From positions 1 to 64,000 of IMG/VR virus record IMGVR_UViG_3300027779_002128: DNA of 64,000 nt. One strand, written 5' to 3'. Positions 509-61,664 of the stretch are shown here, piece after piece. Under the pieces are notes generated by a model. That model was not told where the DNA came from. It did not search any database and was given only the letters and a program-made list of their open reading frames with translations. A program made the position numbers and the translations under genes. Every line of letters starts with the position of its first letter. Position 1 is the stretch's first letter. This DNA is from a virus.

Positions 509-1009
509 CTAGCTAATTAACTCGCCCGTAATCTGCATTGTGTAGCGAGGGAGTATGCCTATGTTACTTGCCGCGTGGGGAACGTCTGCACTCCATAGTG
601 CGTAGTCGCCGGCTTTCCAATTGGTAACTGCTTTGCCGTTGAACTCTAAGTAGTGTCCTGGGTGCCAGTCTTCCATGAACACTAATGCTCTGTATGTGTT
701 GTCTCTTGTTACGCCGAATACACGTTCGTACGTTTCAAAGTGATCTGTGTGCGTAGGCATTATGTCTAGAGTATCCATTTTATAGAATACATAGCCTGTG
801 TTAGTTAAGCCTATCTTGTGTGCTACATAGTCTACCCAGTCTGGCATTGGATTACGACTGTCATACATGCCGCCGGAGAATGATGCATGATAGTAGCCTT
901 TGGCTTGCCATGTGTGTATCTCAGAGTCTTTAATAGGTTGCTTAGTGTAAGCGAAGTGAGTATGTTCGTCTGACCACACAGGAGTTATGTGTCCTTGCCT
1001 GGCTATCAT
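509..1009 (-). CDS. 2OG-Fe(II) dioxygenase / cupin-like protein
   Basis: HTD...H(AASN)...R(YTMQITG) facial-triad pattern; start likely ATG 1009 (ATGA overlap with upstream stop) rather than 1042. Confidence 0.7.
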   Translation of the reverse strand: MIARQGHITPVWSDEHTHFAYTKQPIKDSEIHTWQAKGYYHASFSGGMYDSRNPMPDWVDYVAHKIGLTNTGYVFYKMDTLDIMPTHTDHFETYERVFGVTRDNTYRALVFMEDWHPGHYLEFNGKAVTNWKAGDYALWSADVPHAASNIGILPRYTMQITGELIS

Positions 1010-1974
1010 GATGCTGACCTTATAGTGTCTAGTGTTACGCAATGGAAGCCACCACCTAGTGTGCGTTGATGTCTAGTAGGCAACATAGCACAATCAATGC
1101 CATGCTTCTCTAGTTCTATTCGCAGACTGTGTTGGTTTTCTTCTAATGCTACTAACGTAGGGCTTATGCTTAACATGTTCATGTTAATCCACACACTAGC
1201 ATTGTTGTAGTCGCCGTAGTAACCTATGTCTGTTGGCTCTGGGCACATTATGTAATCCCAATGTCTAAATGGTTCAGGCAGTTGGTTTACGTCTTTAATT
1301 CTTGTAGGGTTAAGCAACATCAAGCCTTCTCGTAGGAAAGCAACTGTGCTGTCTATGTGCATGTAACTGTACACACCTTCTAGTGGGTGTATGTTTAATC
1401 CTGTGTGTTTTTGTAACCAGTCAGCGCCTGCACGGTTTCCTGAGTTACTTACTAGGTACAGTATATCATCATTAGCACGAATACAGTTAGCCGCATCGAA
1501 ACTTGGTGCTACTTCTGTTAATGCTAGAGTGTCTGGGTCGCCTAAACACTTGGTATTGTATAAGTCATCAGCATAGTATCTAGGTGCTTCAGTAATAGTT
1601 GGGAAGTGATGTGCTAGTGGATGATAGTTACATGCTCTTGCTCTAATAGGCATAGGGGTTGCTATAGCATGTTCGCCATGCAAGAACACTATATCCCTAG
1701 GACAGTAATCATAATACTTAACAACTTGATCGGAATCAAACGGTCTAAGTACTTCTATACTCTCACCTTCAAGAAACTTAACAAATGTTTCTAAGTCTTC
1801 GTCTGCTTCTTGCGTTACAATGTCTGGGTAAGGACCTGTGTGTATTGTGTTAGCATCTTCTACGTCTGCATAGTTGACCAATCGCATACTTAAATCTAAG
1901 TCCGGTACTCTTGCACCTCTTGCCCTTCCTACTATAACCTGTCTAAGTGTGTCCCACTCATTTTTTGCGTACAT
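1006..1974 (-). CDS. Amidinotransferase, StrB1 (inosamine-phosphate amidinotransferase)-like
   Basis: NEWDTL, CPRD, FDAAN, SNSGN, HIDST and LGGGFHC motifs; Asp/His/Cys triad retained. Confidence 0.9.
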   Translation of the reverse strand: MYAKNEWDTLRQVIVGRARGARVPDLDLSMRLVNYADVEDANTIHTGPYPDIVTQEADEDLETFVKFLEGESIEVLRPFDSDQVVKYYDYCPRDIVFLHGEHAIATPMPIRARACNYHPLAHHFPTITEAPRYYADDLYNTKCLGDPDTLALTEVAPSFDAANCIRANDDILYLVSNSGNRAGADWLQKHTGLNIHPLEGVYSYMHIDSTVAFLREGLMLLNPTRIKDVNQLPEPFRHWDYIMCPEPTDIGYYGDYNNASVWINMNMLSISPTLVALEENQHSLRIELEKHGIDCAMLPTRHQRTLGGGFHCVTLDTIRSAS

Positions 1975-4257
1975 TTATTCCTCTAGCTTTACGGTAATCA
2001 TATCAGCATCAATGGCTTTGAAGTTTGCCGCTTGAGCTAAATGCTTGTTGTCTGCGTTAACACCGGCTGTAATAACATCTGGTACTGCTACGTTATGCGA
2101 ACCTCGTTCCCACTTGCCTTTGCCTTTGTAGTTGTGTTCAAAACTAAAGTCTATAGTTTTGTTTAAAAATGATTCTTCTTCTAGTAGCTCACCAAAGTCT
2201 GTTTGGCTTCTACCCTCAGTCTTGCTCCACTCAGGCTTTGCAAGTTTTCTAGCACGTTTGGCTGTGTTTGATTGCATACGTGAGTAGTCCTGTGCATAGA
2301 ACGGACCTTTACGTCCACCTTCACTCATAGGCTTCCTATCATCGAATGGATTGTCTACTTGGTTGTATTTGTATTTAAAGTTTGCTTTCCATGTACCGTC
2401 ATCAGCAATAACAAATTTATATGTACCGTGGAACTGATCTGCTGGACCAAACTGACTGCCGAATTCTTTGCTGTCTATGTCAGGGTTAAAGTCTACTGTA
2501 CATCTATAGCCGCCTCTGGTTAGCCACATCATTCTCAAGAAAGGCCATATCTCATTTACTAGACTGTCTGCGAATGGTGATATGTCTGGTTTAATTATGT
2601 TGTAGTCAAAGTCCTCATACTCAATCTCATGATATACATTTGGTTTATTAAGTCTAATAACATAGTGTTCTCTAGCTAGGTTGTGCCTAACAGGGTAACC
2701 AAACGGTACGTCAGTTGCGCCTACCATAAAGTCTATGAATGTATGGAACAGTTTAACCCTGTGCATAACATGTATGCCTGCAATAGTAAAGTCATTACTG
2801 ATCCAATGGTTCTGATACTTGTGATAACTAATGTTCCACTTATGAGGATTCTGTCCTACAATAGTTTCAGGACCTACTGCCATACCTACACCAGCACCAA
2901 TGTTGTTGATGTTCATGTTTCTGTTACGCCAAAGGAATGTCATTGTTCTTGCAAAGTCGTGATGTTGTTCTGTAGGAAAGCCTACGATCCAATTAGTCGC
3001 GGCATACACCCCATGCTTCTTACCTGACTTAAAGTTGTCTTCCATCTCTTTAATAGTTACGCCTTTAGCCATGTCGTCTAATACTTTCTGTGAACCTGAC
3101 TCGCAACCGTAGTTAAGCATAATACAACCACCGGCGGCTAAGTCCTTGAAGTAGTCATCGTCCATGCGTCCGTCACAACGAGCATACCCAGTCCATCTCA
3201 TCTTAATGTTCTTTTCTCTGAGTGCAATAGCAAATGCTCTAAGTTCATTTATGTTACCGTTAATCAAACTATCAATGAACCACATAATGTCTGCACCCTT
3301 CTCATAGTACAAGTATTCTGCTTCACGCAACACATCTATAGCAAGACGTTGTCTGTATTTCCAAAAGTGTGTTTCTTCGCAGAACGTACACTTAGCAGTA
3401 CAACCACGTGAGAACTCTGAGGTTACTCCGTTGGGTACTTTGTATTCGTTAAAGTCTAAACCTTCGTAGTCAGGCATAGGCATATCATTAATATTGATAC
3501 GCTCCATTTCTTCCTGTGTAATCTTATACATAGGACCTCGGTCTATACCATCTTCTTGATCTTGAAGTATAGCAAGTATAGCCGCTTCGCCTTCTCCTGT
3601 GCATATATAATCGTAGTAAGGTTGTATGTCAAACCAATCCTTCTGTACGTTAGATCCGCCTACAGCAATTTTAATGTGTGGCGCTCTCTTCTTAAGTTCT
3701 TTACACATCCACTTAGTTGGTTCTTCTGATATGTAGTATTGACTAAAGCCTACTACTTCGGGATTCTCTTCTATAATATGTTGCAAGCCTTCTTCGAGGA
3801 TAGGCTCTAGCAAAGGATGTATATCATTCATGTATGTTTCACCTAGCCAATGCCAACTGGCAGAAGGATCCCATAACCTAAAAGGAATTAGCTTTTCAGG
3901 TTGCCAAATGTTTTGATGTGCGTTGTAGGCTTTAACATTTAAGTCAAGTATGCTTGTTTCGTACCCAGCACTCTTACAAACGCCACTTAGTCTTGCTAAG
4001 TTAAACGGTGGAAACTCTGGTGCCCACTCAGGACACATAACTAATATTAATTTTGTTGTTCTTGTTTTGTAGTCTACATAAACTGACTTTGTGTTCTTCT
4101 GCTGTACCTTCTTAGAAAATGGTGAAATCATATCCATCATCTGTTGATGTCGTTGATCCTCCACACTCATCTCAGGCTTTTCGTACCTGTCTTCATCAGC
4201 CTTGTCTACTGCAATGTTAGTAAGATTAAAATCTACATGTTTTTTATGTTCGTCCAT
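1975..4257 (-). CDS. Cobalamin-binding (class B) radical SAM enzyme, putative methyltransferase
   Basis: PPFNLARL, VGG and GEGE B12-domain motifs; SRGCTAKCTFC (CxxxCxxC); GCESGSQKVL; IVGFPTE. Confidence 0.88.
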   Translation of the reverse strand: MDEHKKHVDFNLTNIAVDKADEDRYEKPEMSVEDQRHQQMMDMISPFSKKVQQKNTKSVYVDYKTRTTKLILVMCPEWAPEFPPFNLARLSGVCKSAGYETSILDLNVKAYNAHQNIWQPEKLIPFRLWDPSASWHWLGETYMNDIHPLLEPILEEGLQHIIEENPEVVGFSQYYISEEPTKWMCKELKKRAPHIKIAVGGSNVQKDWFDIQPYYDYICTGEGEAAILAILQDQEDGIDRGPMYKITQEEMERININDMPMPDYEGLDFNEYKVPNGVTSEFSRGCTAKCTFCEETHFWKYRQRLAIDVLREAEYLYYEKGADIMWFIDSLINGNINELRAFAIALREKNIKMRWTGYARCDGRMDDDYFKDLAAGGCIMLNYGCESGSQKVLDDMAKGVTIKEMEDNFKSGKKHGVYAATNWIVGFPTEQHHDFARTMTFLWRNRNMNINNIGAGVGMAVGPETIVGQNPHKWNISYHKYQNHWISNDFTIAGIHVMHRVKLFHTFIDFMVGATDVPFGYPVRHNLAREHYVIRLNKPNVYHEIEYEDFDYNIIKPDISPFADSLVNEIWPFLRMMWLTRGGYRCTVDFNPDIDSKEFGSQFGPADQFHGTYKFVIADDGTWKANFKYKYNQVDNPFDDRKPMSEGGRKGPFYAQDYSRMQSNTAKRARKLAKPEWSKTEGRSQTDFGELLEEESFLNKTIDFSFEHNYKGKGKWERGSHNVAVPDVITAGVNADNKHLAQAANFKAIDADMITVKLEE

Positions 4258-4268: not shown

Positions 4269-5888
4269 TTAAAACTCAGCTACTAAATCGTAGTCTGTGG
4301 TGTTTAATTTTTTCAGTGACAAGAAATGATTATAGTTATAATCTATAATCGGTTTCAGTTTCACTTGTAGTTCTAGCCACTCATCGTCTGTTAAATTTGT
4401 TAAACGTAATATTTCTTGCTCTATTGCTACATGCCTATCGTTGTCATCTTTTATAGTATCGTAATCTTCATTAAACAATCCTTCGAATGTTTTATATCCA
4501 ACTACTCTCAAATACTTTAATGTTCCAGGCAATGCCGCAACAATAAATGGATGTCTATGAGCAATAGGCTTATAAACTTTCTCACTTATAAACACACCAT
4601 CTGTATGTATACAGCAACACGGTCTAGTTCCTGTATCTATTAAATTATGATAAAAGTTTGTTTCGTTAACAACACTAAAATAACTGTTATCAAAGTAACC
4701 AGCATCTTCAACGTTAATATCTACAGGATTATCTCTTCCACTAGTTCTATTTAGCACTAAAGGCAACCTATTCCAGAGTTTATAGATATTTTCTATGTAC
4801 GGATCATCTCTAAATTCTTTATCAATATTCTTATTATTTTTTATGTCCCACGAGCTTCTTGTAGAAAGGACTATGTCACTGTTCTTTATATCAAAACTTA
4901 CATAACTTTTCTCGATTAGATCGTGCTCAAATAAGAATCCTACCATACGAGCTCGTTGCCATCTAGGCATTCTATTAAAGCAAAGTAACTTCTTTTCTCG
5001 TTTGCCTATCTTAAACTCTTTCCCTGCCCATACTGGGTGCTTAGTAAAGTCTAATGTTCTATTACCTTCGAATCCAGCCTCCATGGAAGTCTTAGTTACG
5101 TTCTCAAAACGCATACCACTAATAATTTTCATCTTAGGTTGTATACCCATCAGCTGACACATGTGATTATAACTTGCTGTGCCGTCCAATGAACTAGTTA
5201 ACATGAACCATGTATTGCTTGGCATGTAATCAAGTTGGTCAATAAACCTATGTGCTTTGTGAATACTCTGCGGTTGTAAGGCTTCATCAGCATTAGAGAA
5301 AATAACTTTGTCTTTTCCTCTACCTAATGCTTTTTCTATTGCACTTAGTACTTCCATGTGGTTCACTCTATCGATTGCGTGGTCTTCATTAGCACCTGCG
5401 TATACTGGATATATTCTATGCCAGTACTCTACTAGCTCAGGATGTACGCCTAGTATTTGTTCTTGGAACATTCGATCAGCATGTTTACTAAAAGGTTTCA
5501 TAAAGGTTGCTGTTGTACCTTGTCTGTCTTGTTGTTCCCACCTGTCGTTTTGCCAGAAGTAACATTCGTAGGCCCGACTTGCTTCACGAATCCAAGACGC
5601 TATATGAGGAGCTGGTAGCAACTTAGGTAATACAAACACAGTAGACCATGATTTGTATTGGCGCGGATTCTTAGCGTCTAATATTAATACAACGTTTGGA
5701 CCCATTAGATTATTCTGTATGCGTGAGTTGGCGTTACTGTAGTCTTCCATAGTATTAAATTTTGCACCTAGCTTATGTAATGCATCTTTGAGAGGAAGGC
5801 TATCGCTATTCCACTCGCCCTCTACACAAATACACTCGCCGTGCTGACTAATGAAGCCTGCTTGCTCTGTTGCTTTTATATATTCCAT
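4269..5888 (-). CDS. GT10-like putative glycosyltransferase
   Basis: FNRMPR..R; SVVNET...ISEKVYKPI..HPFI...GYKTF..NEDYD C-terminal signature shared with three paralogues. Confidence 0.55.
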   Translation of the reverse strand: MEYIKATEQAGFISQHGECICVEGEWNSDSLPLKDALHKLGAKFNTMEDYSNANSRIQNNLMGPNVVLILDAKNPRQYKSWSTVFVLPKLLPAPHIASWIREASRAYECYFWQNDRWEQQDRQGTTATFMKPFSKHADRMFQEQILGVHPELVEYWHRIYPVYAGANEDHAIDRVNHMEVLSAIEKALGRGKDKVIFSNADEALQPQSIHKAHRFIDQLDYMPSNTWFMLTSSLDGTASYNHMCQLMGIQPKMKIISGMRFENVTKTSMEAGFEGNRTLDFTKHPVWAGKEFKIGKREKKLLCFNRMPRWQRARMVGFLFEHDLIEKSYVSFDIKNSDIVLSTRSSWDIKNNKNIDKEFRDDPYIENIYKLWNRLPLVLNRTSGRDNPVDINVEDAGYFDNSYFSVVNETNFYHNLIDTGTRPCCCIHTDGVFISEKVYKPIAHRHPFIVAALPGTLKYLRVVGYKTFEGLFNEDYDTIKDDNDRHVAIEQEILRLTNLTDDEWLELQVKLKPIIDYNYNHFLSLKKLNTTDYDLVAEF

Positions 5889-6682
5889 TGGTCACCGTGC
5901 TCGTCCCAGGGCCACTGTGGGTCATCGAACACTTCTTGTAATGTTGTTTGTTTCATTATGTCGTCACTAAAGTCGGCGTATTGCTTACTAGCATCTCCTA
6001 ATGGAAAGCCAATGTGTACTAACCAATCTCTGTACACAGGCGCACTAGGGTGATAGTCTGCAAACTCACTGCCGTCATGTGTACTTTTATATGTGTAATG
6101 TACCGGCCACTTGCATTCGTTATAAGTCCATAAACACGGCTCTACAATGTCTAAGTCGTTGTACATATTCTGTATGCTATGTGTTTCTTCGTCTGAGAAG
6201 CCTGCATAGTATCCTTGACCGTTTAAACCTAATCCCATTAAGCCTACACTATCAAACTGTTCTTGCTTTAGTGATTGTGTTACTGTGTCTATAATTGCAC
6301 AATCACGCATAGTCATACCTTGCACATCTACATGTTCCTTAAAGTACTCTTCGCTGAACACATCGTCTCTACCAAATACATTACCTGGAGTACGCCATTG
6401 TCCTTTAATCCACTTGTCTTCTCTGTAGAAAGTACTCCAACAGATAACAACTAAGTCTTTGTTTGTTAAGGACATTTTTCTTTTTGCTTGACTAAGCATT
6501 GTTTGTATGTAACTGTTTCCTGCACCACACTTACCTAAGTTTGTAAACTCTGCATTAGGCATATCCTGTGCAAGTAAGTCGGCCCATGTTGCCCAGCGGT
6601 ACCTAGTAAAACTACAGCCAAGTGTTACTAATCTATCGTACTTAGACAAGTCTATATCAGCAATGTTTGTATTGTAGTACAT
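5876..6682 (-). CDS. SGNH/GDSL hydrolase-like protein (esterase or acyltransferase)
   Basis: GCSFT (block I), NLGKCGAGN (block II), DYHP (block V). Confidence 0.65.
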   Translation of the reverse strand: MYYNTNIADIDLSKYDRLVTLGCSFTRYRWATWADLLAQDMPNAEFTNLGKCGAGNSYIQTMLSQAKRKMSLTNKDLVVICWSTFYREDKWIKGQWRTPGNVFGRDDVFSEEYFKEHVDVQGMTMRDCAIIDTVTQSLKQEQFDSVGLMGLGLNGQGYYAGFSDEETHSIQNMYNDLDIVEPCLWTYNECKWPVHYTYKSTHDGSEFADYHPSAPVYRDWLVHIGFPLGDASKQYADFSDDIMKQTTLQEVFDDPQWPWDEHGDQWNI

Positions 6683-8196
6683 TAAAAGTCTCTGTTCATT
6701 TGTGCATTTATTATAGTTTCTTGCAATGTTTCTTTATTATCAGGACTAGCCCAACTAACAGCTTGCAACGGCTTATTTAAATCTGATTTCTCTATGTGAG
6801 TTATTCTACCTAGCCTACTACGTTCAGCCATTCTCTTGTAGTTATGCTGTAAGATTGGCCACATCTTAATATACAATGCATGGCATTCATCTAAACTTAA
6901 CCCAGAGATGTAATCCATTATTTCTATTAGCTTTTCTGTTCTAACTAAGTGATCTTCTTCTAAGTCATATCCCTCGTCCCAGAAGTCTCCGAATGTTTTG
7001 TAACCTAACTTATGTAAGTATTGTATTGTATATGGAGGAGCAATTAATAAGAACGGTGTCTTAAATTGCATTGACTGTAATACTTTTTCTGATATGTTTG
7101 CAGTAGGTTGTCCGTAACGACTCTCGATACATATATCTACAAACGTTTCCCTGTACAATGGTTCCAGTGGTAAGTGTGTAGGGTTAACTACAACAGGGTT
7201 ACCAATGTTATCAAAGTCTGTGTTCTCTGGATAATGGTGCCCAGCACATTCATGTGCAAACGTTGAGCTTCTTGCACCAACATCATACGTTAGTGGAACA
7301 ACTTTGTTTAACATGTCTATGCCTTCTTTTAAGTTAGCAATAAACTTAGGCTCTCTATCAGGCTCTTGCTCTCCAGCACCGTTAACATTCATCCACGGGG
7401 TATCTAGTAACGTTTCAAGTGGCGTTTCGAAGAACCATATAATGTTACTGTTAATACCTTTAGTCTCGTACTGTTTTAGTATAGCACACATGATTGCTCT
7501 AATAGAAGTAAACCTCCAGCATGTGCAAACAAAATGTTTCTTGAAACTACGCTTAACAGTTATGTCTGCGTTGTTGTACATTATTAATTCGTTTAAGAAC
7601 GGATCGTCACATAGCAGTTTCATTTGCTTGGCATAAGAACTACATGCTTTTTCTACGCCATAGTCACCTGTGTGTACTATTACATTATACAATTTATTCT
7701 GTCCAGCAAAGTAACCAATAGTATCTAGTTCGGTTGAACGTACTCTATTGTGTGTGCCTGTTCCGTTTACATTCTCTCTAGGAAACTCTGTATAGAATCC
7801 GTAATTATAAGCAGACCCCCAGTAACCAGCAAGAGGATCATTTTCATAGTACATGCATATTGGTTCGTACAAAAATATGTGTAAGCCTTTTTTGTTTAGT
7901 AGCTCTACAGTACTAGCGCCAAGTTTTAATTCTATTAACTGTTTGATCTCACCGTTGGCTTGATAAAACAAACACGGAGCATCAATATCCTCATCTTTGT
8001 TCCAGCGTCTAAACTCTGTCCAAGTTCTAATACGTGGAATATCTCGTATAGTTGCTTTCATAATGTTTGGGTGACTGATTGCACCCTCAGGAAAATTATG
8101 ATATGCTAAACTACTTGTTACTTCTTCGTAGTTGATACTTAGCTCATCAGTAACTGCTTTGTTAGTAACTGTACTGGTTTTATCTAACTGTGCCAT
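6682..8196 (-). CDS. GT10-like putative glycosyltransferase
   Basis: DICIES...ISEKVLQSM..TPFL...GYKTFGDFWDEGYD. Confidence 0.55.
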   Translation of the reverse strand: MAQLDKTSTVTNKAVTDELSINYEEVTSSLAYHNFPEGAISHPNIMKATIRDIPRIRTWTEFRRWNKDEDIDAPCLFYQANGEIKQLIELKLGASTVELLNKKGLHIFLYEPICMYYENDPLAGYWGSAYNYGFYTEFPRENVNGTGTHNRVRSTELDTIGYFAGQNKLYNVIVHTGDYGVEKACSSYAKQMKLLCDDPFLNELIMYNNADITVKRSFKKHFVCTCWRFTSIRAIMCAILKQYETKGINSNIIWFFETPLETLLDTPWMNVNGAGEQEPDREPKFIANLKEGIDMLNKVVPLTYDVGARSSTFAHECAGHHYPENTDFDNIGNPVVVNPTHLPLEPLYRETFVDICIESRYGQPTANISEKVLQSMQFKTPFLLIAPPYTIQYLHKLGYKTFGDFWDEGYDLEEDHLVRTEKLIEIMDYISGLSLDECHALYIKMWPILQHNYKRMAERSRLGRITHIEKSDLNKPLQAVSWASPDNKETLQETIINAQMNRDF

Positions 8197-9425
8197 TAAT
8201 AATTTACCTTATGTGCAAAGTCATATTTATGTTTGCTTTGTAAGGTCCTAAAGTTTTTGTCGCAAATTTCTTTTACGTTATCTAACCATGTATAAAGTTC
8301 TTCGCCTTGTAATGCATCTAAGCGTTTTGTTTCTTCTATAATCATTTGCATACGTTTAATATCGTCTTGCTCAGCATCGTAACTTTCATTGATATAAGGA
8401 GCAAACGATTTGTACCCTATGCTTTTGAGAGCTGACATACTTCCGCATGGTGCTATTAATATAAACGGGTGCTTAAAACTTATAGGCTTAAATACTTTCT
8501 CACTAAAAAATATACCGTGCTCTTCATCACTTTCGAAGTAATGGGTTTCACTTACTAAACTAAAATATGTTTCAGCATACATCCAATCATCTGATTCAAT
8601 AAAGTCTGCTCTGTTTGTTACAAGCTCTTTGTGGTCAATATACTTAGGCGGCATGTTTACTAGCTCGTCCTTTATTGACATTAACTGTTTTGTAAGATTA
8701 ATGTTTTTAGTATCTTTGCATAGTTGTAATAGAACAGGGAACATCTCAGTCCAGTCTCGATCATCGTCACTAGGACCAAAGCTAATTAGACCACTGTCTA
8801 TTAATCCTTCTGCTAATAGCATAGAAACAAACAATGGTCTATGTGTGCGCCAACGTCTATTAAAGTTTAAAAATGATGTTGCATATTCTTTTTTCTCGAG
8901 TGTAGGCTTAAACTTAAGACGTTTATGACCTAGTAAATACTCTAGAGTATTGTTCGCACCCTTCTCAAAGTCTAAGATAATCTTTATTTTAATAGAGTCT
9001 TGGTTGTCTCTAGTAGCAACTATCTCTTGATTAAGTTTGTTTGCTTCAAAGGCACCTGTCATTAGTATAATCTTATGTGCAGGTATGCTGTAACGGTCCA
9101 CTAGACCGCTGTAAACGTCTTGTACGCAACTTAAGAAGGCTTCGTGACTATTTGCCACAACTAAGTAAAAATTGCTATTAGAACGCTTTAAACGAGCTAA
9201 AACAGTAGAGTCAAGTAACTCTTCTAGTTGTATTAATCCTAACGCAGGACTCTTACGAAACTCTATAATGTAGTAATCGTTTTCAGACTCGCTCCAATCA
9301 TGCATAAATGTAATCATAGGAGTATCACGCTCTTCAGACCATAATTTAATAACTTCGCCAAGTCTAGTAAGTTCTACATCAAAGAACGTTACCTTCGCTT
9401 CATGGTTAATCAATGCCAACTGCAA
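8196..9425 (-). CDS. GT10-like putative glycosyltransferase
   Basis: FNRRWR.HR; SLVSET...FSEKVFKPI..HPFI...GYKSF..NESYD. Confidence 0.55.
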   Translation of the reverse strand: MQLALINHEAKVTFFDVELTRLGEVIKLWSEERDTPMITFMHDWSESENDYYIIEFRKSPALGLIQLEELLDSTVLARLKRSNSNFYLVVANSHEAFLSCVQDVYSGLVDRYSIPAHKIILMTGAFEANKLNQEIVATRDNQDSIKIKIILDFEKGANNTLEYLLGHKRLKFKPTLEKKEYATSFLNFNRRWRTHRPLFVSMLLAEGLIDSGLISFGPSDDDRDWTEMFPVLLQLCKDTKNINLTKQLMSIKDELVNMPPKYIDHKELVTNRADFIESDDWMYAETYFSLVSETHYFESDEEHGIFFSEKVFKPISFKHPFILIAPCGSMSALKSIGYKSFAPYINESYDAEQDDIKRMQMIIEETKRLDALQGEELYTWLDNVKEICDKNFRTLQSKHKYDFAHKVNY

Positions 9426-10407
9426 TTACCTCCGTGTCTGCATTATGTCTCTTAGGAATAATAATATCCGTTCCACACATGCAATGATACTTGGTGCATG
9501 TAATTGTTCTTGGCCCTACTCTGCTTATGTCATCTAGTATGTGGCCTACTTGTCCACTTAGTCCGCAACTTGCCAGACTCACTTCACCTACAGGAGATAT
9601 GAATACACAGTCACCTATGTCGCAACTCCAACCTGTAAAGAAGTTTTGCCTTTGAACAATAACATCGTTACTGTTGCAAACTGCTTCAGTGCCATCTTCG
9701 GTTAGTGTATAACTTGCAGTACCGCTCTCATGTTTGAAAGGATTTTCAATAGTACTTTCTTGTTCAGTTGAATGCTGTTCTATAAATTCTGTTTTCTTAA
9801 GATCCTTATATTCCCATGGACCAGCATTCACACTTAGCTCGTCGTACAGCGGAGTCCACTCTATAAAGTAGTTAGGCATAACTTTTTTTAAGTGCTCGCC
9901 AAATGCTACACATTCCCAGAACCTTTCATCGTGTAATAATATTTTTGAACTAAGGTAGTTTAGTTTGTCACATAAGTATATACTTGTTTCTGCGTACTGT
10001 TCTTTCTTTGATTGCTCAACATGGAAACTTGCAACAACATCATCAAACAAGTGTAAGTGTTTCTCCCACCATGCTCTTGGCCTACTTAAATTTGTGTTAA
10101 TAGCAATAGTGCATTCGGGTAGTACATTTTTTAAATGTTCACAGATAGGAATAAAGTTTTTCCATGCTGTTGGTTCACCGCCACTAAAGAAAAACTTAAA
10201 GTGCTTATAGTCTTGTGTCTTATACTTTGCAATAATCTTATCTAAGTTTTCTATATATTTTTCTAGGTTACCTTCGTTAGGACTATCTCCAATCCAGTTG
10301 CCAGGGTTGCAGTATGTACAACTAAAGTTACAGAAATTGTTTACCTGCCAGGTTACACTAAGGTACTTCTCAGGTGCTGAGATCTCTACTAGTTTCTTTG
10401 ACACCAT
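9406..10407 (-). CDS. Radical SAM enzyme with C-terminal Cys-rich (SPASM/Twitch-like) tail
   Basis: CNFSCTYC, SGGEP, NTNLS; C-terminal CDIG..C...SC...CTKYHCMC. Confidence 0.88.
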   Translation of the reverse strand: MVSKKLVEISAPEKYLSVTWQVNNFCNFSCTYCNPGNWIGDSPNEGNLEKYIENLDKIIAKYKTQDYKHFKFFFSGGEPTAWKNFIPICEHLKNVLPECTIAINTNLSRPRAWWEKHLHLFDDVVASFHVEQSKKEQYAETSIYLCDKLNYLSSKILLHDERFWECVAFGEHLKKVMPNYFIEWTPLYDELSVNAGPWEYKDLKKTEFIEQHSTEQESTIENPFKHESGTASYTLTEDGTEAVCNSNDVIVQRQNFFTGWSCDIGDCVFISPVGEVSLASCGLSGQVGHILDDISRVGPRTITCTKYHCMCGTDIIIPKRHNADTEVIAVGID

Positions 10408-11672
10408 TCGTAAACCTCATGTAATTGTGGGATGACGCTAATCATATTTTCATCTCGGATCATATCATATTCATCGTTGTTATCGAAAAACTCTAAAAGT
10501 TTTTCTTTGTTTTCTTTTCCTGTCCACAGCGTTTGGACTAACATCTTAAAGTCATTCCTTAAGTCTGTATCTTCCTCTGCATGGAACTTGCCTATGTAAT
10601 GTTTTAGTTCTTTTATTATTTCTAGTCTAATAGCATTAGGTAATATTTGTATTGCCGCAAAGTCTGGGTATGTTAATACATTAACACGTGGTGGCAGTTC
10701 TCTACTTACAAACCCATTCTCATACATCCAATCATACATCTCACCATAGTTAAATATATTCCATATGCTTATAGTTGGAGTAATACCTACTTTAATATGC
10801 GGTGCTTTCTCTTTAATTGTAAGCATGTTGTTTTGTACTTTGTTCCAATTAAATCCCTTACGAATAAGTTCTCCTTGCTCACCAATTGAATCGATACTAG
10901 CCCATATCTCCATCTTAGGAAAATGGCTCCACAGTTCAATTAAGTCTCTGCCCTTATGGGATATCTTACTCATGTTAGTTGTATAGTTTAACTGTATGTT
11001 CTTCGCTAAGTCGTTTTCAATCCAGTAGTCTAAGCACTCATAGTGTTCAGGTGTTACTAGAATCTCGCCACCAGCAAAGTAACATTCCTCTACATCATCT
11101 AAGTAAGGTCTTAACTTATCCATGAACGAACCATCTGCGTTATTAGATATTAATGTTTTTGCTTTCTTATCATCTTCATGACCGAAACGTGTAATGAATA
11201 CATGCTCTTCAATCATCTTTAATTTTTCTTCACCATGCAAGTTTGAACAAGCAGGCCCACAACTACGACACTTAAAGTTACAGATATTACTAAAACGTAT
11301 GTCCATGTACTTTAACTTAAACTCGTCTATGCTACCATCACTGTTAGTTGACTCTATCATGTCTATATTATCTTTACCACGAACCATATTTTGACTTTGT
11401 CTTAAGGTCCATGTACCGTTATCTTCTAGTTCATAGCACCTAGAACATGCTTCATACGGTTCGTCATTGAGCATAGCATTACGCATTTTCTTATACTCAT
11501 CGGAGTTCATCATATCTAAAATGGACTCGCCTTCTTTTAGTTCACTAACCGGAGCATCACTATCAGCAACACAACACGGCATAACTTGTTTGTTTGGCCA
11601 TGCGTGGAAATGTATCCACGGTAGAACACAAAAATGTTTGCTGTCTTTTACTAGTTGTTTTGCTGTTTTCAT
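10389..11672 (-). CDS. Radical SAM enzyme with N-terminal Twitch domain
   Basis: FCVLPW..PCC..CSRC followed by CNFKCRSC, AGGE, YTTN, SID. Confidence 0.88.
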   Translation of the reverse strand: MKTAKQLVKDSKHFCVLPWIHFHAWPNKQVMPCCVADSDAPVSELKEGESILDMMNSDEYKKMRNAMLNDEPYEACSRCYELEDNGTWTLRQSQNMVRGKDNIDMIESTNSDGSIDEFKLKYMDIRFSNICNFKCRSCGPACSNLHGEEKLKMIEEHVFITRFGHEDDKKAKTLISNNADGSFMDKLRPYLDDVEECYFAGGEILVTPEHYECLDYWIENDLAKNIQLNYTTNMSKISHKGRDLIELWSHFPKMEIWASIDSIGEQGELIRKGFNWNKVQNNMLTIKEKAPHIKVGITPTISIWNIFNYGEMYDWMYENGFVSRELPPRVNVLTYPDFAAIQILPNAIRLEIIKELKHYIGKFHAEEDTDLRNDFKMLVQTLWTGKENKEKLLEFFDNNDEYDMIRDENMISVIPQLHEVYEWCQRN

Positions 11673-12916
11673 TATTTTCCCTGTAACCTTCTTAACTCAG
11701 GAAATGTTTTAAAGAAGTCTTCGCCTCTTATATCATCTAACCTAAATGTATTCTTGAAGAAGTCTTCCTTACATTCTTCCCAATTATCTTCACCATCAGC
11801 AAAGTCGGCCGCACTATTAGTTATCCGATCTATGCATCCTTTGTTACCTTTAAAGAAACTTCTTACATTCTCTCCAGCAACCTTCTTCAACGCACTAGGC
11901 ATTGCTTTTGCACTATAGTACTTAGGATTATCACATAAGTATAATGTGTGGTACCAATCATGATCAAAGTCTACTAGTCCTTGTAGTCTCATGTATTCAT
12001 AAAACTCAGGTATTGTCGCATAGTTCATTATACTGAATACTGTATTGATTTGGAAGTTCACATAATCAAGTGCTTTAAATGTTTTTAAGTTCTCTTCAAC
12101 CTTGCCCCAATTAGTTCCTGACCGCATTAGTTCAGCACGGTCTCCATAATGGTCAACTGAACAACTTAATTCTATGTTGTCAAAGTGTTTCCAAAGTTCT
12201 AATATATCATACTGCTTGTAGCTCAGTGTACTAGCATTTGTATTGTAACGCAATGTTACATCAGTCCTGCCTTTGCGTATCATGTCCTCTAGTATAACAT
12301 AATGCTCAGGAGTAATCAACGGTTCGCCACCAGCGAAGTAAGCCAGGTCTATATGTTCAACTTGATCTAATATCTCTTCTAGTACAGTTCCTTCGTTATC
12401 GTCAACGTGTATAATAATAGGTCCATCTGGATTATAAGTTTTCTTATCCTCCAATGCCCATTGCGAACTAAACTCTGTTCCACAACTACGACATTTAAAG
12501 TTACATATATTACTAAACCTTATATCAAAGTATTTCATTTTAAGTTCGTCTACATGTCCATCGGTGTGCGTCATTGCCAATGATTCATCGAATGAGTCAG
12601 AGAAGTTATCCATGCTGTATGTACGGAAGCTATGTGGGCCAGCCTTTTCATGACTATAACAAAAGTTACATATCTCAGACTTCTTACCTGCTAACATATT
12701 TAATCGTAAGTCTTTCATGTAGTCTGTGTTGAATGCTTCTTTAAGGCTCATGTCTCTAGCATTACCAATTGGATTAGTATAGTCGTTACTACAACAAGGG
12801 TATATGTCTCCTTTAGGTGTTGCATTCAAGTGTACCCAAGGGAACATACAAAACGTTTTACTATCTGTAAGCAATGCTTCTTTGTCTAAGTCCTGTAGTT
12901 TTATGTAATCACTCAT
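11672..12916 (-). CDS. Radical SAM enzyme with N-terminal Twitch domain
   Basis: FCMFPW..PCC..CNFC; CNFKCRSC; AGGEP; YNTN. Confidence 0.88.
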   Translation of the reverse strand: MSDYIKLQDLDKEALLTDSKTFCMFPWVHLNATPKGDIYPCCSNDYTNPIGNARDMSLKEAFNTDYMKDLRLNMLAGKKSEICNFCYSHEKAGPHSFRTYSMDNFSDSFDESLAMTHTDGHVDELKMKYFDIRFSNICNFKCRSCGTEFSSQWALEDKKTYNPDGPIIIHVDDNEGTVLEEILDQVEHIDLAYFAGGEPLITPEHYVILEDMIRKGRTDVTLRYNTNASTLSYKQYDILELWKHFDNIELSCSVDHYGDRAELMRSGTNWGKVEENLKTFKALDYVNFQINTVFSIMNYATIPEFYEYMRLQGLVDFDHDWYHTLYLCDNPKYYSAKAMPSALKKVAGENVRSFFKGNKGCIDRITNSAADFADGEDNWEECKEDFFKNTFRLDDIRGEDFFKTFPELRRLQGK

Positions 12917-14192
12917 ATAAATTTCTCAGTTCAGGAAACACTTCTACAAAACTTTCATTCCTTAATTTATCTAGCCTAGTAGTTTCTGCAACAAACTCAG
13001 CCCTAACATTATTAAAATCAGTACCAGAAGAGTCAACCAAATCAGGAAACGCAATTATATTTGATATTGTGTTTTTAAAATCATACTGTCTCTTTTTGTA
13101 TGTTAATATTAGTCTGTCATTACTGCTAACATATTTTACTATATTTTCTATGCCTTGTCTACCTTTATCTTTTAATTCTTGCGGTAAGTTAAACACACTA
13201 ATCCATTCAGGATTAGATACAGGATTCAGTTGCCAGTCGCCTCCAGGCATAAGTCCTGTGCTTAACATTTTCTTATAAAATTCTTCTAGTGTAGTATAGT
13301 TTAACATACTAACAGTTGAACTAATTTGTAAATTAACATTAGGCTCTAGTAATAATGTTTTAATATTTGCTTCTATATCCTTCCACTTAGTTCCACTTCT
13401 AATATATTCTGCTCTGTCGTCACAGTGATCAATACTACTGTAAATATTTACAGGATGATCAAACTGTTCCCACAGCTCTAATACGTTATACTTTTTAAAC
13501 TTTAGTTTACTTAGGTTAGTGTTGTAACTTAGTTTAACATCAGCTCTACCTTGCTTAATTAATTCTTCGAGCATCTTGTAATGGTAGTCGTCAACTAACG
13601 GCTCCCCACCAGCAAAGTAACATTCTTCCATGTACGGTATGTGCTCTAGCAACTCGTCAAATATATCTTTGTTACGTTCAGGCATCATATCTGTTGTTAA
13701 GTTTATGCCTTGCTTCTTATCTTCGGCTTCCCACAAACTACTATAGCCAGAGTTACAAGAACGGCACTTCATATTACATACGTGGCTAAGTCTAAAGTCA
13801 AAATATTTCATTTCAAAATCTGCTAAGTGACCGTCTCTTGCTGTACGCCTTAAGACTTTCTTTTTCCATTTGCCATACTTCTCATTTGCAGTATTCCTAA
13901 AACTATATGTGCCAGTGCCACTGTCTTCTATCTTATGACAGCCATTACATACTTCGTGCCTCTTACCTGCTATCATGTCTAGTCGTAATTGTTTCATGAA
14001 GTCTGAATTAACCATTTCTTCAATTGACAAATTCTTTCTCCCTATAGAATGAGAATACTTCATGTTGCCAATACAACATGGCAATGGCTTACCATCAGGA
14101 GTTACATGCATATGAACAAATGGTAACATGCAAAATGCATTGTTGTCCTTTGAATGTGGAATGTAGTTATCTATGTGATTCTTTTTTGGCAT
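12909..14192 (-). CDS. Radical SAM enzyme with N-terminal Twitch domain
   Basis: FCMLPF..PCC..CNGC; CNMKCRSC; AGGEP; YNTN. Confidence 0.88.
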   Translation of the reverse strand: MPKKNHIDNYIPHSKDNNAFCMLPFVHMHVTPDGKPLPCCIGNMKYSHSIGRKNLSIEEMVNSDFMKQLRLDMIAGKRHEVCNGCHKIEDSGTGTYSFRNTANEKYGKWKKKVLRRTARDGHLADFEMKYFDFRLSHVCNMKCRSCNSGYSSLWEAEDKKQGINLTTDMMPERNKDIFDELLEHIPYMEECYFAGGEPLVDDYHYKMLEELIKQGRADVKLSYNTNLSKLKFKKYNVLELWEQFDHPVNIYSSIDHCDDRAEYIRSGTKWKDIEANIKTLLLEPNVNLQISSTVSMLNYTTLEEFYKKMLSTGLMPGGDWQLNPVSNPEWISVFNLPQELKDKGRQGIENIVKYVSSNDRLILTYKKRQYDFKNTISNIIAFPDLVDSSGTDFNNVRAEFVAETTRLDKLRNESFVEVFPELRNLYE

Positions 14193-15634
14193 TACTTTAC
14201 TTCTACTAATTGTATATCGCTGGCATTAAGTTCACCGCACATGTTATAAAAGCCTTCCATCTCTGGGAAAGTCTCTAGGAAGTTTGTGTCTCTACGTCTG
14301 TCGTACTCGTTAAACCATTTGTAGAAATCAATTCTACCTCTGCGTATTTTCTCATCGTCGTACGGTGTGGTAGCAAAATAATCTCTTACTCGTCTAAAAC
14401 GTTCATACTCTAATTCACTAAACATTGTTCTATCATCTTCAACAAGGTTGTCCTTAACAAAAGATAAGATGTCATCGAAGTAAGGTAAGAACTCTTCTTT
14501 AGGTAATATGTGCATGTCATACTGCAACGGTTCTTTGAGGTACGGTGTATCAAATCTAATCTTTCTTACGTTAGGTTCACTGCCTAAGTTATTTGGTATA
14601 ATGTCTTCGTACGTCTTGCGCCACTCTAATACTTTTTTCAAGTACTCTTTAAATGTTGTAACACTTAGCACATTGAATGTTACCATGTGTGTTATATGAC
14701 TTTTAACGCCACGCAAGTATATGTCTTGATTCTTTTCCCAAAGTTCAATGTCTAAACCTGTTCTAATATATTCAGCACGTTTGCCCCATGTATCAATGGA
14801 ACTAAACATTTTAAAGCCACGTATTTTATTGTTCTCTGTTAGTTCTTTAACTACTTCTACTAATCTCTCTACACGTCTGCTAGTGTATCCTAAGTTAGTG
14901 TTAACGTTAATTTCTATATTTGGCTTTGGGTTCTCACTAAGTTCTTCGAACAGTCTCCAAGTAGTTTTATGCAAGATCGGTTCGCCGCCTGTTATCCTAA
15001 GTATGTTTAATGTTTCGCTTACCTCAGGCCACCACTTCCACCATGCTTCGACGTACGGAGAATCCTCATCGTAAATATCAAACCAGTCTATGTCAGCTTG
15101 GTGATTGCTAACCATATTGTACGGACCATGCTTCTTAATCTCTGCTCTATATAAGCTACTATGCATTGGATGACAGTACCCACACTTAAAGTTACACTCG
15201 TTACTGAATGCAATTTCTACATACTCTGGATTAATTTTATAGTCAGGTGGATTATATATAATCTCATTTAATCTATCTTCTGTGTATATGCTACTGTTAC
15301 GAATATGCCTGTCCGAAACATGCTTCTCTTCGCCTTCAGCTTTGTTCTCATCCATCTCTTCTACGTTCCAGCAGTACTGACAGCCACTTGGCTTATCACC
15401 GTTGAGCATTTGAATACGTTCATCAATTTTCTGCGGTGTGTTATGTAGTACACTTGGGTCGTACTTTAATTCTTGTAAAGGTATGTCATGTGGCTTAGGG
15501 TGGTAGCAACTATGCGTCTGCCCTCTATGTAAGTAAATAGTTGTGTGGTGCCACTTAGCCAGACAGAATGTCTCACTAATCTCATTAGTAAGCAGTTCGT
15601 CTATTTCTTCTATTCGCCCTATTCTATCACTCAT
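14192..15634 (-). CDS. Radical SAM enzyme with divergent N-terminal Twitch domain
   Basis: FCLAKW..HSCYHP..CQYC; CNFKCGYC; TGGEP; NTNL. Confidence 0.85.
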   Translation of the reverse strand: MSDRIGRIEEIDELLTNEISETFCLAKWHHTTIYLHRGQTHSCYHPKPHDIPLQELKYDPSVLHNTPQKIDERIQMLNGDKPSGCQYCWNVEEMDENKAEGEEKHVSDRHIRNSSIYTEDRLNEIIYNPPDYKINPEYVEIAFSNECNFKCGYCHPMHSSLYRAEIKKHGPYNMVSNHQADIDWFDIYDEDSPYVEAWWKWWPEVSETLNILRITGGEPILHKTTWRLFEELSENPKPNIEINVNTNLGYTSRRVERLVEVVKELTENNKIRGFKMFSSIDTWGKRAEYIRTGLDIELWEKNQDIYLRGVKSHITHMVTFNVLSVTTFKEYLKKVLEWRKTYEDIIPNNLGSEPNVRKIRFDTPYLKEPLQYDMHILPKEEFLPYFDDILSFVKDNLVEDDRTMFSELEYERFRRVRDYFATTPYDDEKIRRGRIDFYKWFNEYDRRRDTNFLETFPEMEGFYNMCGELNASDIQLVEVK

Positions 15635-15646
15635 ATTATACCTAGT

Positions 15647-15670
15647 ATAGCAGGAGCGAACCCCTGCTAT
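15647..15670 (-). other. Intergenic RNA hairpin with UUCG tetraloop
   Basis: Minus-strand RNA AUAGCAGGGG-UUCG-CUCCUGCUAU (10-bp stem, one GU pair); no U-tract in the sense direction. Confidence 0.7.
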
Positions 15671-15676
15671 GTTTTA

Positions 15677-16987
15677 TTATCCCTGTTTAATTCTCGTATT
15701 ACCGTAATGCACAACCTTCACGCCTTCGATATTAGGAATCTGTCTCCACGGGTCTAACACAATACTACCGACTGGAAACTGTAACTCAGTTCCGTTGCCT
15801 GTAGAAACAGACAATGCTGTGTCGCAATCTGTTCTATTATGTTTGCCGTTGTACCATCCTGGTACGTTATCTAGTTGGTCACCATAAGTGATACCTGGAT
15901 TGTGTGCTAGTAAGTATACTGCTGGCTCACTAAGTTTATCGTCTAACGGCACGTCACCAGTTTTCTCATCATAGTAATGTAATTCAAATCCTGCTTTTTG
16001 TATGTAGTGTCCTACTAGCATACTGGCCGAACCTGCATCATATTCTACTAAAGGCTTGTAAGCCTTACCGACTATAATGATTGGCAATCCGTTTACTATA
16101 TCACCTGCTAACTCCATTAAACGTTTTGCCATGTTCTCTGCTTGTACTTCTCGTGAAAGCATCACAGCATCAAACAAGTCGTAACCTAACCCTAAGTTCT
16201 CAGCCATCCACCGTAGTGCGATATTATCTCTTGGGTGACAAGCACCACCATCGCCCATACCCGGCTTCATATATCCAGGTCCCATGATACGTCTATCACT
16301 TGAAGCTAATGCATCACAAACAACTTCCGCGTTTATGTTACCTTGCTTTTCTGCAACGTCTTGAATCATATTTACTAAGGATACTTTTGCTGATATAAAT
16401 GTATTGTAAAATACTTTAATGCACTCACATTCATCCCAGGTACCTATAATATACCTTGGATCGTTCTGCATTATTGTTTTATAAAAGTCTACAAGTTGTT
16501 TTGCATCACCTGTTTCACTTCCATCTGCGGTTCCAATCATTACCATTTCTGGATTAACCATATCCCATTTTACTGTACCCATTGCAATTAAGTATGGGTT
16601 GTAAATAAAACGAGCATTAGTTAAGAGTGGAATAAACTCACGTCTAACAGTACCTGGTAGTACTGTGCTAATAAGGACTATTAGTTGTTCATTGGTTGCT
16701 ACCGCATTTACTTTCCTAAGGATATCTTTAACTATACTGTAATCGAAATCCTTATTAGGTAAATGGCTGGTAGGTGCTTTTCCATCATACTGTGGGTCAT
16801 GCGGTGTAGGCACAGCAACAAAGACAATTTCTTGTCCTCTTACTGCATCTTCCACTGTATCAACCATTGCAAAGTTTTCAGGCTCTACAGGGTTAATGTC
16901 AAACCCAACAACATCATGTACTTCAGCGACCATTTCGGCGCAGGCTTGTCCTAACTTGCCAACTCCGATAAATCCGACTGAGGCCAT
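15677..16987 (-). CDS. UDP-glucose/GDP-mannose dehydrogenase family
   Basis: GFIGVGKLG, AVPTP, STVLPGT, YNP, KVFYN, GGACHPRD (catalytic Cys); AGGAG RBS upstream. Confidence 0.92.
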   Translation of the reverse strand: MASVGFIGVGKLGQACAEMVAEVHDVVGFDINPVEPENFAMVDTVEDAVRGQEIVFVAVPTPHDPQYDGKAPTSHLPNKDFDYSIVKDILRKVNAVATNEQLIVLISTVLPGTVRREFIPLLTNARFIYNPYLIAMGTVKWDMVNPEMVMIGTADGSETGDAKQLVDFYKTIMQNDPRYIIGTWDECECIKVFYNTFISAKVSLVNMIQDVAEKQGNINAEVVCDALASSDRRIMGPGYMKPGMGDGGACHPRDNIALRWMAENLGLGYDLFDAVMLSREVQAENMAKRLMELAGDIVNGLPIIIVGKAYKPLVEYDAGSASMLVGHYIQKAGFELHYYDEKTGDVPLDDKLSEPAVYLLAHNPGITYGDQLDNVPGWYNGKHNRTDCDTALSVSTGNGTELQFPVGSIVLDPWRQIPNIEGVKVVHYGNTRIKQG

Positions 16988-17027
16988 TTTTATCTCCTGT
17001 TGTTAGTAGTATTTTTAAACTACGCTG

Positions 17028-17819
17028 TTATTTATCAGGATTGAATTCAGGTTTTATATGTATTTGGTTAGCTTCATATAGAATATTCATGCTGTTCCAG
17101 AAGTCGTAAAATTGTTGAGGGGTAAGTATGCAAGGATTATCGCTGTCGTCGTCACCTAAATATTTTTCAATAGAGACAACACCTTTGTATGCTACAGCAA
17201 TACCTGGGAATATTCCAGCTTCACGACTCTCGTATGCTATTGCAACATCAGGGAAAGCCTGTTGTAAATCATCTATGTGTGCTAGTTCAAGCTCTTCTAT
17301 TTTAGGCGGAAACTCGCTACTAGCATAGTATACAGTTAGTTTATCTCTACCTGACTCTTTATAATATCGCATAACATCATGTACATGCTGATGACTATAT
17401 ATAACATGATCAAAGTTATCTTTAGCATAGCGTATCAAGTCTTCAATCGGTTCTATAGCATCATAATGAAGTTTAAGTATGTGTGCATTGCAATGCTCGT
17501 TGACCCAGGCCGCGGCCTGATCATCAGTAACACTCCATATAAGCGGTATGCCAATATCTTTGCAAAAGTCTGTTATTGCTATTGCGTTGCTAGGAGTAAG
17601 TTCTGAACGTTTGGCTACATCAATGTATGCCATTGTCCCCCACTTACTTGCAATAGGAACATACTTTTTATTTTTAGGAACAGTTAATGTGGGTGTACTT
17701 TTACTAAGAACGATTGCATCGGCATTGCCTGTTGCGGCTGATACTACTCGTTGTTTTAATACCTCAATGTCGTTCTCATGCCCTATTCCGATATTTGCAT
17801 AAAGTTTAATTGCCACCAC
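17028..17819 (-). CDS. Degenerate NeuB (N-acetylneuraminate synthase)-family TIM-barrel protein
   Basis: Follows the NeuB pattern (ANIGIGH~AEIGINH, ADAI, EL..FC..IGI, S.FP..ELEL, IEKY~IEKH) but catalytic residues are substituted; no C-terminal SAF/AFP domain. Confidence 0.7.
   Translation of the reverse strand: MVAIKLYANIGIGHENDIEVLKQRVVSAATGNADAIVLSKSTPTLTVPKNKKYVPIASKWGTMAYIDVAKRSELTPSNAIAITDFCKDIGIPLIWSVTDDQAAAWVNEHCNAHILKLHYDAIEPIEDLIRYAKDNFDHVIYSHQHVHDVMRYYKESGRDKLTVYYASSEFPPKIEELELAHIDDLQQAFPDVAIAYESREAGIFPGIAVAYKGVVSIEKYLGDDDSDNPCILTPQQFYDFWNSMNILYEANQIHIKPEFNPDK
17029..17035 (-). promoter_or_regulatory. ATAAATA late-type promoter motif upstream of the dehydrogenase-radical SAM block
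   Basis: tatttat at 17029-17035 overlapping the stop of the NeuB-like gene, about 40 nt before ATG 16987. Confidence 0.55.
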
Positions 17820-23256: not shown

Positions 23257-23271
23257 ATTTTAACTCTCGTG

Positions 23272-23279
23272 TATTTATA
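23272..23279 (-). promoter_or_regulatory. Exact T4-type late promoter TATAAATA heading the enzyme cluster
   Basis: tatttata on + strand, just downstream of the terminator and about 15 nt before ATG 23256. Confidence 0.7.
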
Positions 23280-61659: not shown

Positions 61660-61664
61660 ACTGT

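Follow-up and report, generated by a model that had tools for sequence, protein, structure and literature searches.

A StrB1-like amidinotransferase and a small 2-oxoglutarate oxygenase form a conserved gene pair in marine phages and may be the core of a guanidino-sugar cassette

Which amine would a phage amidinotransferase modify, and why is its gene coupled to that of an oxygenase? These questions are raised by one end of the IMG/VR virus record IMGVR_UViG_3300027779_002128, a 75.6-kb record (CheckV completeness 16%) whose bases 1-64000 are the stretch analysed here (the window). The minus strand carries every gene of the window, and the two genes in question, with their junction, lie near window base 1, which is a contig end:

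1006-1974, minus strand: StrB1-like L-arginine amidinotransferase, 322 amino acids (aa), assigned by PDB search, conserved residues and tree
509-1009, minus strand: small Fe(II)/2-oxoglutarate (2OG) oxygenase, 166 aa counted from its ATG, assigned by motif and fold (the open reading frame (ORF) lister extends the start to a TTG at 1042)
1006-1009, minus strand: ATGA stop/start overlap of the two genes, read directly in the sequence

We propose, with a probability of roughly 0.6, that this pair is the core of a phage cassette that would install a guanidino group at one position on a sugar. A sequence-only reading of the same DNA had described the first protein as an amidinotransferase of the StrB1 (inosamine-phosphate) branch, and had deduced an amino-sugar or cyclitol acceptor whose amine must come from elsewhere.

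The 322-aa protein matches no model in Pfam or NCBIfam, and its PHROGs match is to an unnamed family only. In a phmmer search of the PDB, the best match by far is StrB1 of Streptomyces griseus (1bwd; E 1.3e-69, 238 bits, residues 4-320). AGAT, SxtG and HsvA, which like CyrA-type enzymes share the superfamily and the catalytic triad, reach only 102, 113 and 121 bits, respectively; AGAT (EC 2.1.4.1) is thus the lowest-scoring of them, which does not place the window enzyme in that class. A profile built from 28 phage homologues separates them in the same way, with 279.7 bits for StrB1 vs 152-164 for the others. The sequence-only reading had relied on the segment FDAAN..LYLVSNSGN..G..WLQ, and this comparison holds: residues 159-188 (sFDAANciranddiLYLVSNSGNraGadWLQ) align with vFDAANvlrfgtdlLYLVSDSGNelGakWLQ of StrB1, and the FDAAN common to the window enzyme and StrB1 is FDAAD at the same place in HsvA and SxtG. 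In the alignment with 1bwd, D94, R113, D160, H206, D208 and C312 correspond to D108, R127, D179, H227, D229 and C332 of StrB1, which we take, from the StrB1 and AGAT structures, to be its catalytic and binding residues; all six are invariant across the 28 phage homologues. The catalytic triad C312-H206-D160, together with D94, R113 and D208, is predicted to be intact, as the sequence-only reading had stated, and the protein is by all sequence criteria an intact StrB1-type amidinotransferase. Against the 86%-identical enzyme of the closest relative (L004), the ratio of nonsynonymous to synonymous substitution rates (dN/dS, Nei-Gojobori method) is ∼0.11, and that of the oxygenase 0.10, with dS near saturation; these values indicate that both genes are under purifying selection.

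Clustering with AGAT was the outcome that the sequence-only reading had named as speaking against it, and the tree gives another result. The tree holds 61 rows (29 phage enzymes, 25 cellular ones from a scan of species-representative genomes, and annotated plasmid-borne proxies) and comes from a quick IQ-TREE run with SH-aLRT support only and no bootstrap. As reference rows, proxies stand in for the characterised StrB1, AGAT, SxtG and CyrA sequences; one Streptomyces plasmid proxy is a near-orthologue of StrB1 (578.8 bits when checked against the PDB). All phage amidinotransferases fall into a single clade with a support of 100 and a long stem. Two further lineages, one of actinomycete StrB1 enzymes and the other a large cellular one, join it in a StrB1-like group with an SH-aLRT value of 94, within which the mutual order of the lineages is not resolved. 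Outside the group lie AGAT-like rows (a polyketide synthase-linked gene of Dolichospermum, and genes of Streptomyces), an HsvA-like gene from Pantoea, and the row of Campylobacter phage CP220. By the tree as by the PDB scores, the window enzyme is on the StrB1 side of the family and not on the AGAT side.

The downstream gene had been read as a 2OG-Fe(II) oxygenase, which fold and motif bear out, though no Pfam model matches: neither Pfam nor NCBIfam gave a hit at E <= 0.01 (the best, Gig2-like, has E 0.077), and a PDB sequence search gave no match. The protein has a predicted iron triad, HxD...H (H87-x-D89...H145), and ten residues after the second histidine an arginine, R155 (RYT), presumably for the C5 carboxylate of 2OG; all four residues are invariant in 42 homologues. 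Its AlphaFold2 model has a predicted local distance difference test score (pLDDT) of 92.9, and in an exhaustive structural comparison with 48,161 chains the 50 best-scoring ones (Z 9.7-12.8, covering residues 1-166) are Fe(II)/2OG oxygenases without exception, in agreement with Foldseek. The matches range from PiuC, prolyl hydroxylases, AlkB and SnoK to the sugar-acting AviO1, EvdO and HygX. Because of this fold, a double-stranded beta-helix, and the invariant motif, we assign the protein to the Fe(II)/2OG superfamily; as judged from the model, it is a genuine small member, of a subfamily without a curated profile, and a profile search of 1.84 billion cluster representatives found 1178 relatives at E <= 1e-3. 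The alternative of a cupin, of sugar ketoisomerase or epimerase type, was ruled out by the invariant HxD...H...R and by structural neighbours that are exclusively 2OG oxygenases.

Are the two genes together by chance? A scan of IMG/VR found at least 217 contigs with close relatives of the amidinotransferase, of which the best 80 (56-86% identity) were analysed along with the window, making 81 loci. In 58 of these, an oxygenase homologue directly adjoins the amidinotransferase gene in the same orientation (33 upstream, 25 downstream); it lies two to eight genes off in a further 18, and is absent from five. In the window, the minus strand reads ...GCA TCA TGA at the junction, with ATG ATA GCC in the +1 register. 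The coupling from which the sequence-only reading had argued for a shared substrate is thereby confirmed, and the relatives agree with it: a 4-base overlap is the commonest spacing of the pair, and adjacency is kept in either gene order. The amidinotransferase and the oxygenase can be regarded as a conserved and, as their overlap predicts, translationally coupled pair in marine phages.

A third gene commonly accompanies the pair. A ∼199-aa protein of the DegT/DnrJ/EryC1/StrS family (PF01041, E 4e-17), here called mini-DegT, is encoded within six genes in 68 of the 81 loci, most often in the order DegT, oxygenase, amidinotransferase. Its D86 (IDAA) and K110 (SFQxKK), the pyridoxal phosphate (PLP)-binding positions, are invariant, its model (pLDDT 94.8) is most similar to GDP-perosamine synthase, ArnB, BtrR and PglE, and five large phage records contain no other DegT match. 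Moreover, the oxygenase occurs in fused forms. In one 397-aa protein (P0168), mini-DegT is followed by the oxygenase; in several ∼590-aa proteins of other phages, the oxygenase is followed by a ∼420-aa glycosyltransferase (GT)-like domain, which is homologous to the 539-, 504- and 409-aa paralogues of the window and to the gene after the oxygenase in, for example, the relatives L006 and L011. Such fusions would link the oxygenase with transamination as well as with the GT-like proteins, and no other observation argues as strongly for a sugar as the common substrate. The wider surroundings include a NodU/TobZ-family carbamoyltransferase (36 of the 81 loci), tandem glycosyltransferases (so named in cyanophage S-SCSM2R), GDP-mannose 4,6-dehydratase, members of the UDP-glucose dehydrogenase family, and radical SAM genes.

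In the sequence of reactions that we propose, mini-DegT would transaminate a keto sugar, which could be linked to a nucleotide or be part of an existing glycan. The amidinotransferase would take the amidino group of L-arginine onto Cys312 as a thiouronium intermediate, an intermediate that is established for AGAT and StrB1, and release ornithine; the amidino group would then pass to the new amine, giving an N-amidino (guanidino) sugar. Streptidine synthesis proceeds in the same way, from a keto through an amino to a guanidino group (StsC, StrB1). The oxygenase would act on the same sugar, either by making the carbonyl needed by the aminotransferase, for which LipL and LipO of nucleoside antibiotic pathways, 2OG oxygenases that make a carbonyl for a later transaminase, provide a precedent, or by hydroxylating the product. 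A cobalamin (B12)-binding radical SAM enzyme, the stop codon of which directly abuts the amidinotransferase start in the window (TAAATG, as read in the sequence), may methylate the same sugar. The cationic sugar would be built into a phage-directed glycan, the target being a part of the virion (a fibre), the host surface or envelope, or DNA. A more specific version, in which the oxygenase replaces the dehydrogenase of streptidine-type pathways (carbinol to ketone) and the cassette places a guanidinium on a sugar of a tail-fibre or baseplate glycan that binds anionic host surfaces, is speculative, and we hold it to be doubtful.

Several points weigh against a guanidino sugar. To our knowledge, natural guanidino sugars occur only in aminocyclitol antibiotics, and none has come from a virus or a surface glycan; a full-text literature search for 'guanidino sugar' returned nothing. 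The oxygenase's best fold matches include protein prolyl hydroxylases and PiuC, so that a protein substrate is possible. Mini-DegT is without ∼40 internal residues (from the alignment with 7b0m; by hidden Markov model, profile positions ∼100-162) and without the whole C-terminal domain (profile positions 240-360), which leaves it short of the full two-domain architecture of 360-400 aa; it could be inactive, or have another function. Thirteen of the 81 loci show no DegT gene in the stretch examined, and eight of these consist of amidinotransferase, oxygenase and a GT-like gene only, among replication genes. Neither the small oxygenase nor the short DegT was found near the cellular homologues of the amidinotransferase, and the largest cellular clade of the StrB1-like group sits in amino-acid or nonribosomal peptide synthetase-like clusters. 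Lastly, the whole 75.6-kb record contains no DegT-family match.

This last point agrees with the sequence-only reading as far as the window is concerned, and its proposal to look for a DegT gene in the rest of the genome yielded nothing in the record itself, but a DegT gene in the 68 related loci. Its conclusion that the acceptor amine must come from elsewhere probably reflects a contig-end artefact, as relatives carry DegT near the pair. In four of the seven closest relatives (L005, L006, L007, L011), a DegT gene is encoded on the other strand, four to five genes further downstream than the amidinotransferase; L004, the nearest relative, is truncated too. Most likely, the window shows no aminotransferase because the contig ends 508 bp past the oxygenase, before the syntenic DegT position, and synteny would place the missing gene just past the contig end. 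Between the oxygenase stop and the contig end (1-508, minus strand), no ORF of 50 aa or more was found. The corresponding place in L004 holds small ORFs only.

If the acceptor carries its amine by transamination, is it a sugar or a cyclitol? Were the enzyme true to StrB1 in function, it would amidinate a phosphorylated aminocyclitol (scyllo-inosamine-4-phosphate or a relative) on the way to a streptidine-like, antibiotic-type compound. StrB1 is its closest solved structure, sharing fold, six active-site residues and FDAAN; the DegT family includes the cyclitol aminotransferase StsC, so that in both pathways an aminotransferase of this family would feed the amidinotransferase; and B12 radical SAM and carbamoyltransferase genes are also found in aminoglycoside clusters. 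However, searches of five large phage records, one of which is the complete genome of S-SCSM2R, found neither a sugar-phosphate cyclase (PF01761) nor an inositol-1-phosphate synthase (PF01658), although control genomes do match both. Because these records are without cyclitol synthases, a cyclitol is disfavoured and a sugar favoured, and they show no cyclase or inositol-phosphate synthase to supply the cyclitol expected in the pathway of EC 2.1.4.2 (inosamine-phosphate amidinotransferase). A genuine streptidine-type cluster looks different: the StrB1 near-orthologue in our tree adjoins a dehydroquinate synthase (DHQS)-like cyclase, a full-length DegT gene and an aminoglycoside phosphotransferase-type (APH) gene, whereas the phage side has a half-size DegT, a small 2OG oxygenase and GT-like neighbours, and the window amidinotransferase is ∼26 residues shorter than StrB1, the phage enzymes forming a separate clade on a long branch. 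We therefore regard a cyclitol product as very unlikely, and of the two acceptors deduced by the sequence-only reading the amino-sugar is favoured, on the strength of gene context. In Streptomyces, genes for an aminotransferase, a 'streptomycin biosynthesis protein' and an amidinotransferase stand in this order; a parallel with the phage trio was considered and rejected, the middle gene being a helix-turn-helix regulator.

StrB1-likeness, from which both acceptors had been deduced, is in itself insufficient: a place in the StrB1 branch does not settle which acceptor is used, because the cellular clade of the same group has an amino-acid context. In 69 of 75 cellular homologues (loci L085-L163; e.g. 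L100:7974-9053), the amidinotransferase belongs to a conserved cluster with an SbnA-type PLP enzyme, an SbnB-type protein of the ornithine cyclodeaminase family, a ∼1400-aa adenylation/carrier/hexapeptide protein and a phosphopantetheinyl transferase (PPTase). The content of this cluster, for which we know of no described product, points to the loading of a guanidino amino acid onto a carrier protein. DUF418 is often also present, and the cluster spans many phyla, including a metagenome-assembled genome (MAG) of Nitrosopumilus.

By analogy, the phage enzyme could guanidinylate a free amino acid or polyamine (diaminopropionate, ornithine, lysine or similar) to a soluble metabolite, with the oxygenase hydroxylating the guanidinylated product or arginine itself. 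The cellular enzymes are indeed closer to StrB1 by score than the phage enzyme (390 vs 238 bits), and actinomycete homologues are fused to aminoacyl-tRNA synthetase-like domains. The SbnA, SbnB and carrier partners are not present in the phage loci, however, where the partners are a sugar-type aminotransferase and GT-like proteins, both of which are also seen fused to the oxygenase, and the phage clade is separate from the cellular one. Amino-acid or small-amine chemistry seems improbable to us on balance, and the argument for a sugar is carried by gene context as read from sequence, not by branch membership. The actinomycete fusions (P0121-P0140, from Amycolatopsis and relatives, about 700-760 aa) combine a StrB1-like amidinotransferase with a class II synthetase-like domain (PF00152), and in P0141 of Streptomyces albidoflavus the amidinotransferase is fused to an APH-type phosphotransferase. 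A search for longer forms of the amidinotransferase found such actinomycete fusions only, none with an oxygenase or a DegT domain.

The fold of the oxygenase bears on a different possibility, that proteins are the substrates: the oxygenase would hydroxylate a virion or host protein, and the amidinotransferase would turn lysine into a homoarginine-type residue, or act on an amine of a glycan already assembled on a protein. Among the best fold matches of the oxygenase are the protein prolyl hydroxylases 4iw3, 6f0w and 5c5t, and the gene cluster adjoins tail-fibre genes. Yet the fold matches span the whole 2OG superfamily with tied Z scores, AviO1, EvdO and HygX among them, a fusion of the oxygenase with a sugar aminotransferase would be hard to explain, and we know of no protein-lysine amidinotransferase. 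We judge protein modification to be rather unlikely.

Could the guanidino group instead serve DNA? Glycosyltransferases of phages are established as decorating DNA, and a guanidino group on a modified base or a DNA-attached sugar might act against restriction. Campylobacter phages CP220 and CPt10, which are T4-like and have modified DNA, carry five radical SAM genes and a putative glycine amidinotransferase (PMC2853527), and their radical SAM genes, amidinotransferase and two GT-A-like genes stand in one block, a layout that resembles the window's. The CP220 amidinotransferase is only 26% identical, however, has HsvA as its closest PDB relative, and lies outside the StrB1-like group; the radical SAM genes of that phage share generic similarity only with those of the window, to which they are not orthologous, and it has no homologue of the small oxygenase. 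Its gp085, encoded just before the amidinotransferase, was compared as a candidate and rejected. In the window, no base-modification genes stand beside the pair, and the cluster lies in the structural region, adjoining tail fibres. Hypermodification of DNA or nucleotides is, on these grounds, highly improbable.

Homologues of the pair have already been reported in one phage. In Synechococcus phage S-SCSM2R (PQ898602), ORF308 is annotated as '2OG-Fe(II) oxygenase family protein' and ORF309 as 'inosamine amidinotransferase' (BMC Biol 2025, PMC12801897). The two genes are adjacent, the amidinotransferase being 58.6% identical to that of the window and the oxygenase 28% (E 9e-21), and stand among glycosyltransferases, a short DegT gene (ORF305) and a radical SAM gene. 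They differ from the window pair in that the oxygenase comes first and no B12 radical SAM gene lies beside them. ORF305, ORF306 and ORF309 were described as 'antibiotic synthesis genes' new to cyanophages, without discussion of a sugar product (PMC12801897), a naming that would favour the cyclitol pathway; a guanidino sugar, if confirmed, would correct it. Beyond this paper, we found none that mentions such a gene in a cyanophage. The virion proteome of S-SCSM2R includes ORF266, annotated as a glycine amidinotransferase, and ORF269, prolyl hydroxylase-like (PMC12801897); ORF266 was not found with the window amidinotransferase by tblastn at E 1e-5, being too distant.

The layout around the pair recalls the host recognition cluster of pelagimyophages and cyanomyophages, a variable island following a baseplate or VrlC-type gene, with tail fibres, many glycosyltransferases, UDP-glucose dehydrogenase and radical SAM cassettes (mSystems 2020, PMC7029224). 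The window shows the same arrangement; that study, in contrast, mentions neither an amidinotransferase nor an aminotransferase, and proposes modification of the host O-chain without specifying the chemistry. A guanidino-sugar cassette in this position would be made up of three unusually small enzymes (199-aa DegT, 166-aa 2OG oxygenase, 322-aa amidinotransferase). In the more specific and doubtful version given above, it would be a self-contained route from hydroxyl to guanidino group that gives the virion a cationic glycan, and guanidino sugars would be widespread and so far undetected in marine phage particles. The module is common, with the at least 217 contigs mentioned above, and is located in the host-recognition region; if it does make a guanidino sugar, it might affect adsorption, superinfection exclusion or evasion of host defence in abundant ocean phages. 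One carrier, S-SCSM2R (host Synechococcus WH7803), is in culture.

The remaining genes of the cluster in the window are as follows:

1975-4257, minus strand: cobalamin-binding radical SAM enzyme, 760 aa (PF02310 and PF04055)
4269-5888, minus strand: candidate glycosyltransferase, phage-only, 539 aa (BLASTP paralogy, weak GT10 lead)
6682-8196 and 8196-9425, minus strand: two GT-like paralogues of 504 and 409 aa (BLASTP)
9406-23279, minus strand: rest of the co-oriented cluster, with several unassigned genes (Pfam)
15677-16987, minus strand: UDP-glucose/GDP-mannose dehydrogenase family gene (Pfam)
17028-17819, minus strand: NeuB-like gene (Pfam)

NCBIfam matches of the B12 radical SAM enzyme are at the level of class-B methyltransferase subfamilies only, all under the cut-offs; 18 of the 81 loci have a gene of its family, in several of them directly upstream of the amidinotransferase. 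The products of 4269-5888, 6682-8196 and 8196-9425 are paralogues by BLASTP among window proteins. A Pfam search of these three (4269-5888 and 6682-9425) gave no match, and the GT10 lead for the first is weak (protein atlas score 0.79); such leads make glycosyltransferase activity a tentative assignment. A megablast search of the first 12 kb against a phage collection gave no match. PHROGs assigns tail-fibre and baseplate functions to 24354-32424 and 57074-61680, with baseplate wedge and long-tail-fibre proteins further along the window; the window comes from a T4-like myovirus, whose tail-fibre genes adjoin the cluster (509-23279).

Some related loci depart from the common arrangement. The minimal module of the L008-L018 type (e.g. 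L008:1971-5738), with amidinotransferase, oxygenase and a GT-like gene of 389 aa but no DegT gene in the stretch examined, lies between a 5'-3' exonuclease gene and MoxR-type AAA/VWA-metallopeptidase genes, outside glycan islands. Both the small oxygenase and the short DegT are missing from two loci (L027, L028), where GDP-mannose 4,6-dehydratase directly precedes the amidinotransferase and is itself preceded by a 136-aa protein with a weak cupin match and an unassigned 364-aa protein.

In the window itself, 10389-15634 (minus strand) holds four paralogous radical SAM genes with a mutual identity of 22-39%, and in three of their products the SPASM-type cluster domain precedes the radical SAM core; the fifth such gene, at 9406-10407 (minus strand), is no paralogue of the other four. 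Between the baseplate and tail-fibre genes, a single ORF of 7,187 aa (33138-54701, minus strand) probably encodes a VrlC-type giant baseplate or fibre protein of marine T4-like phages.

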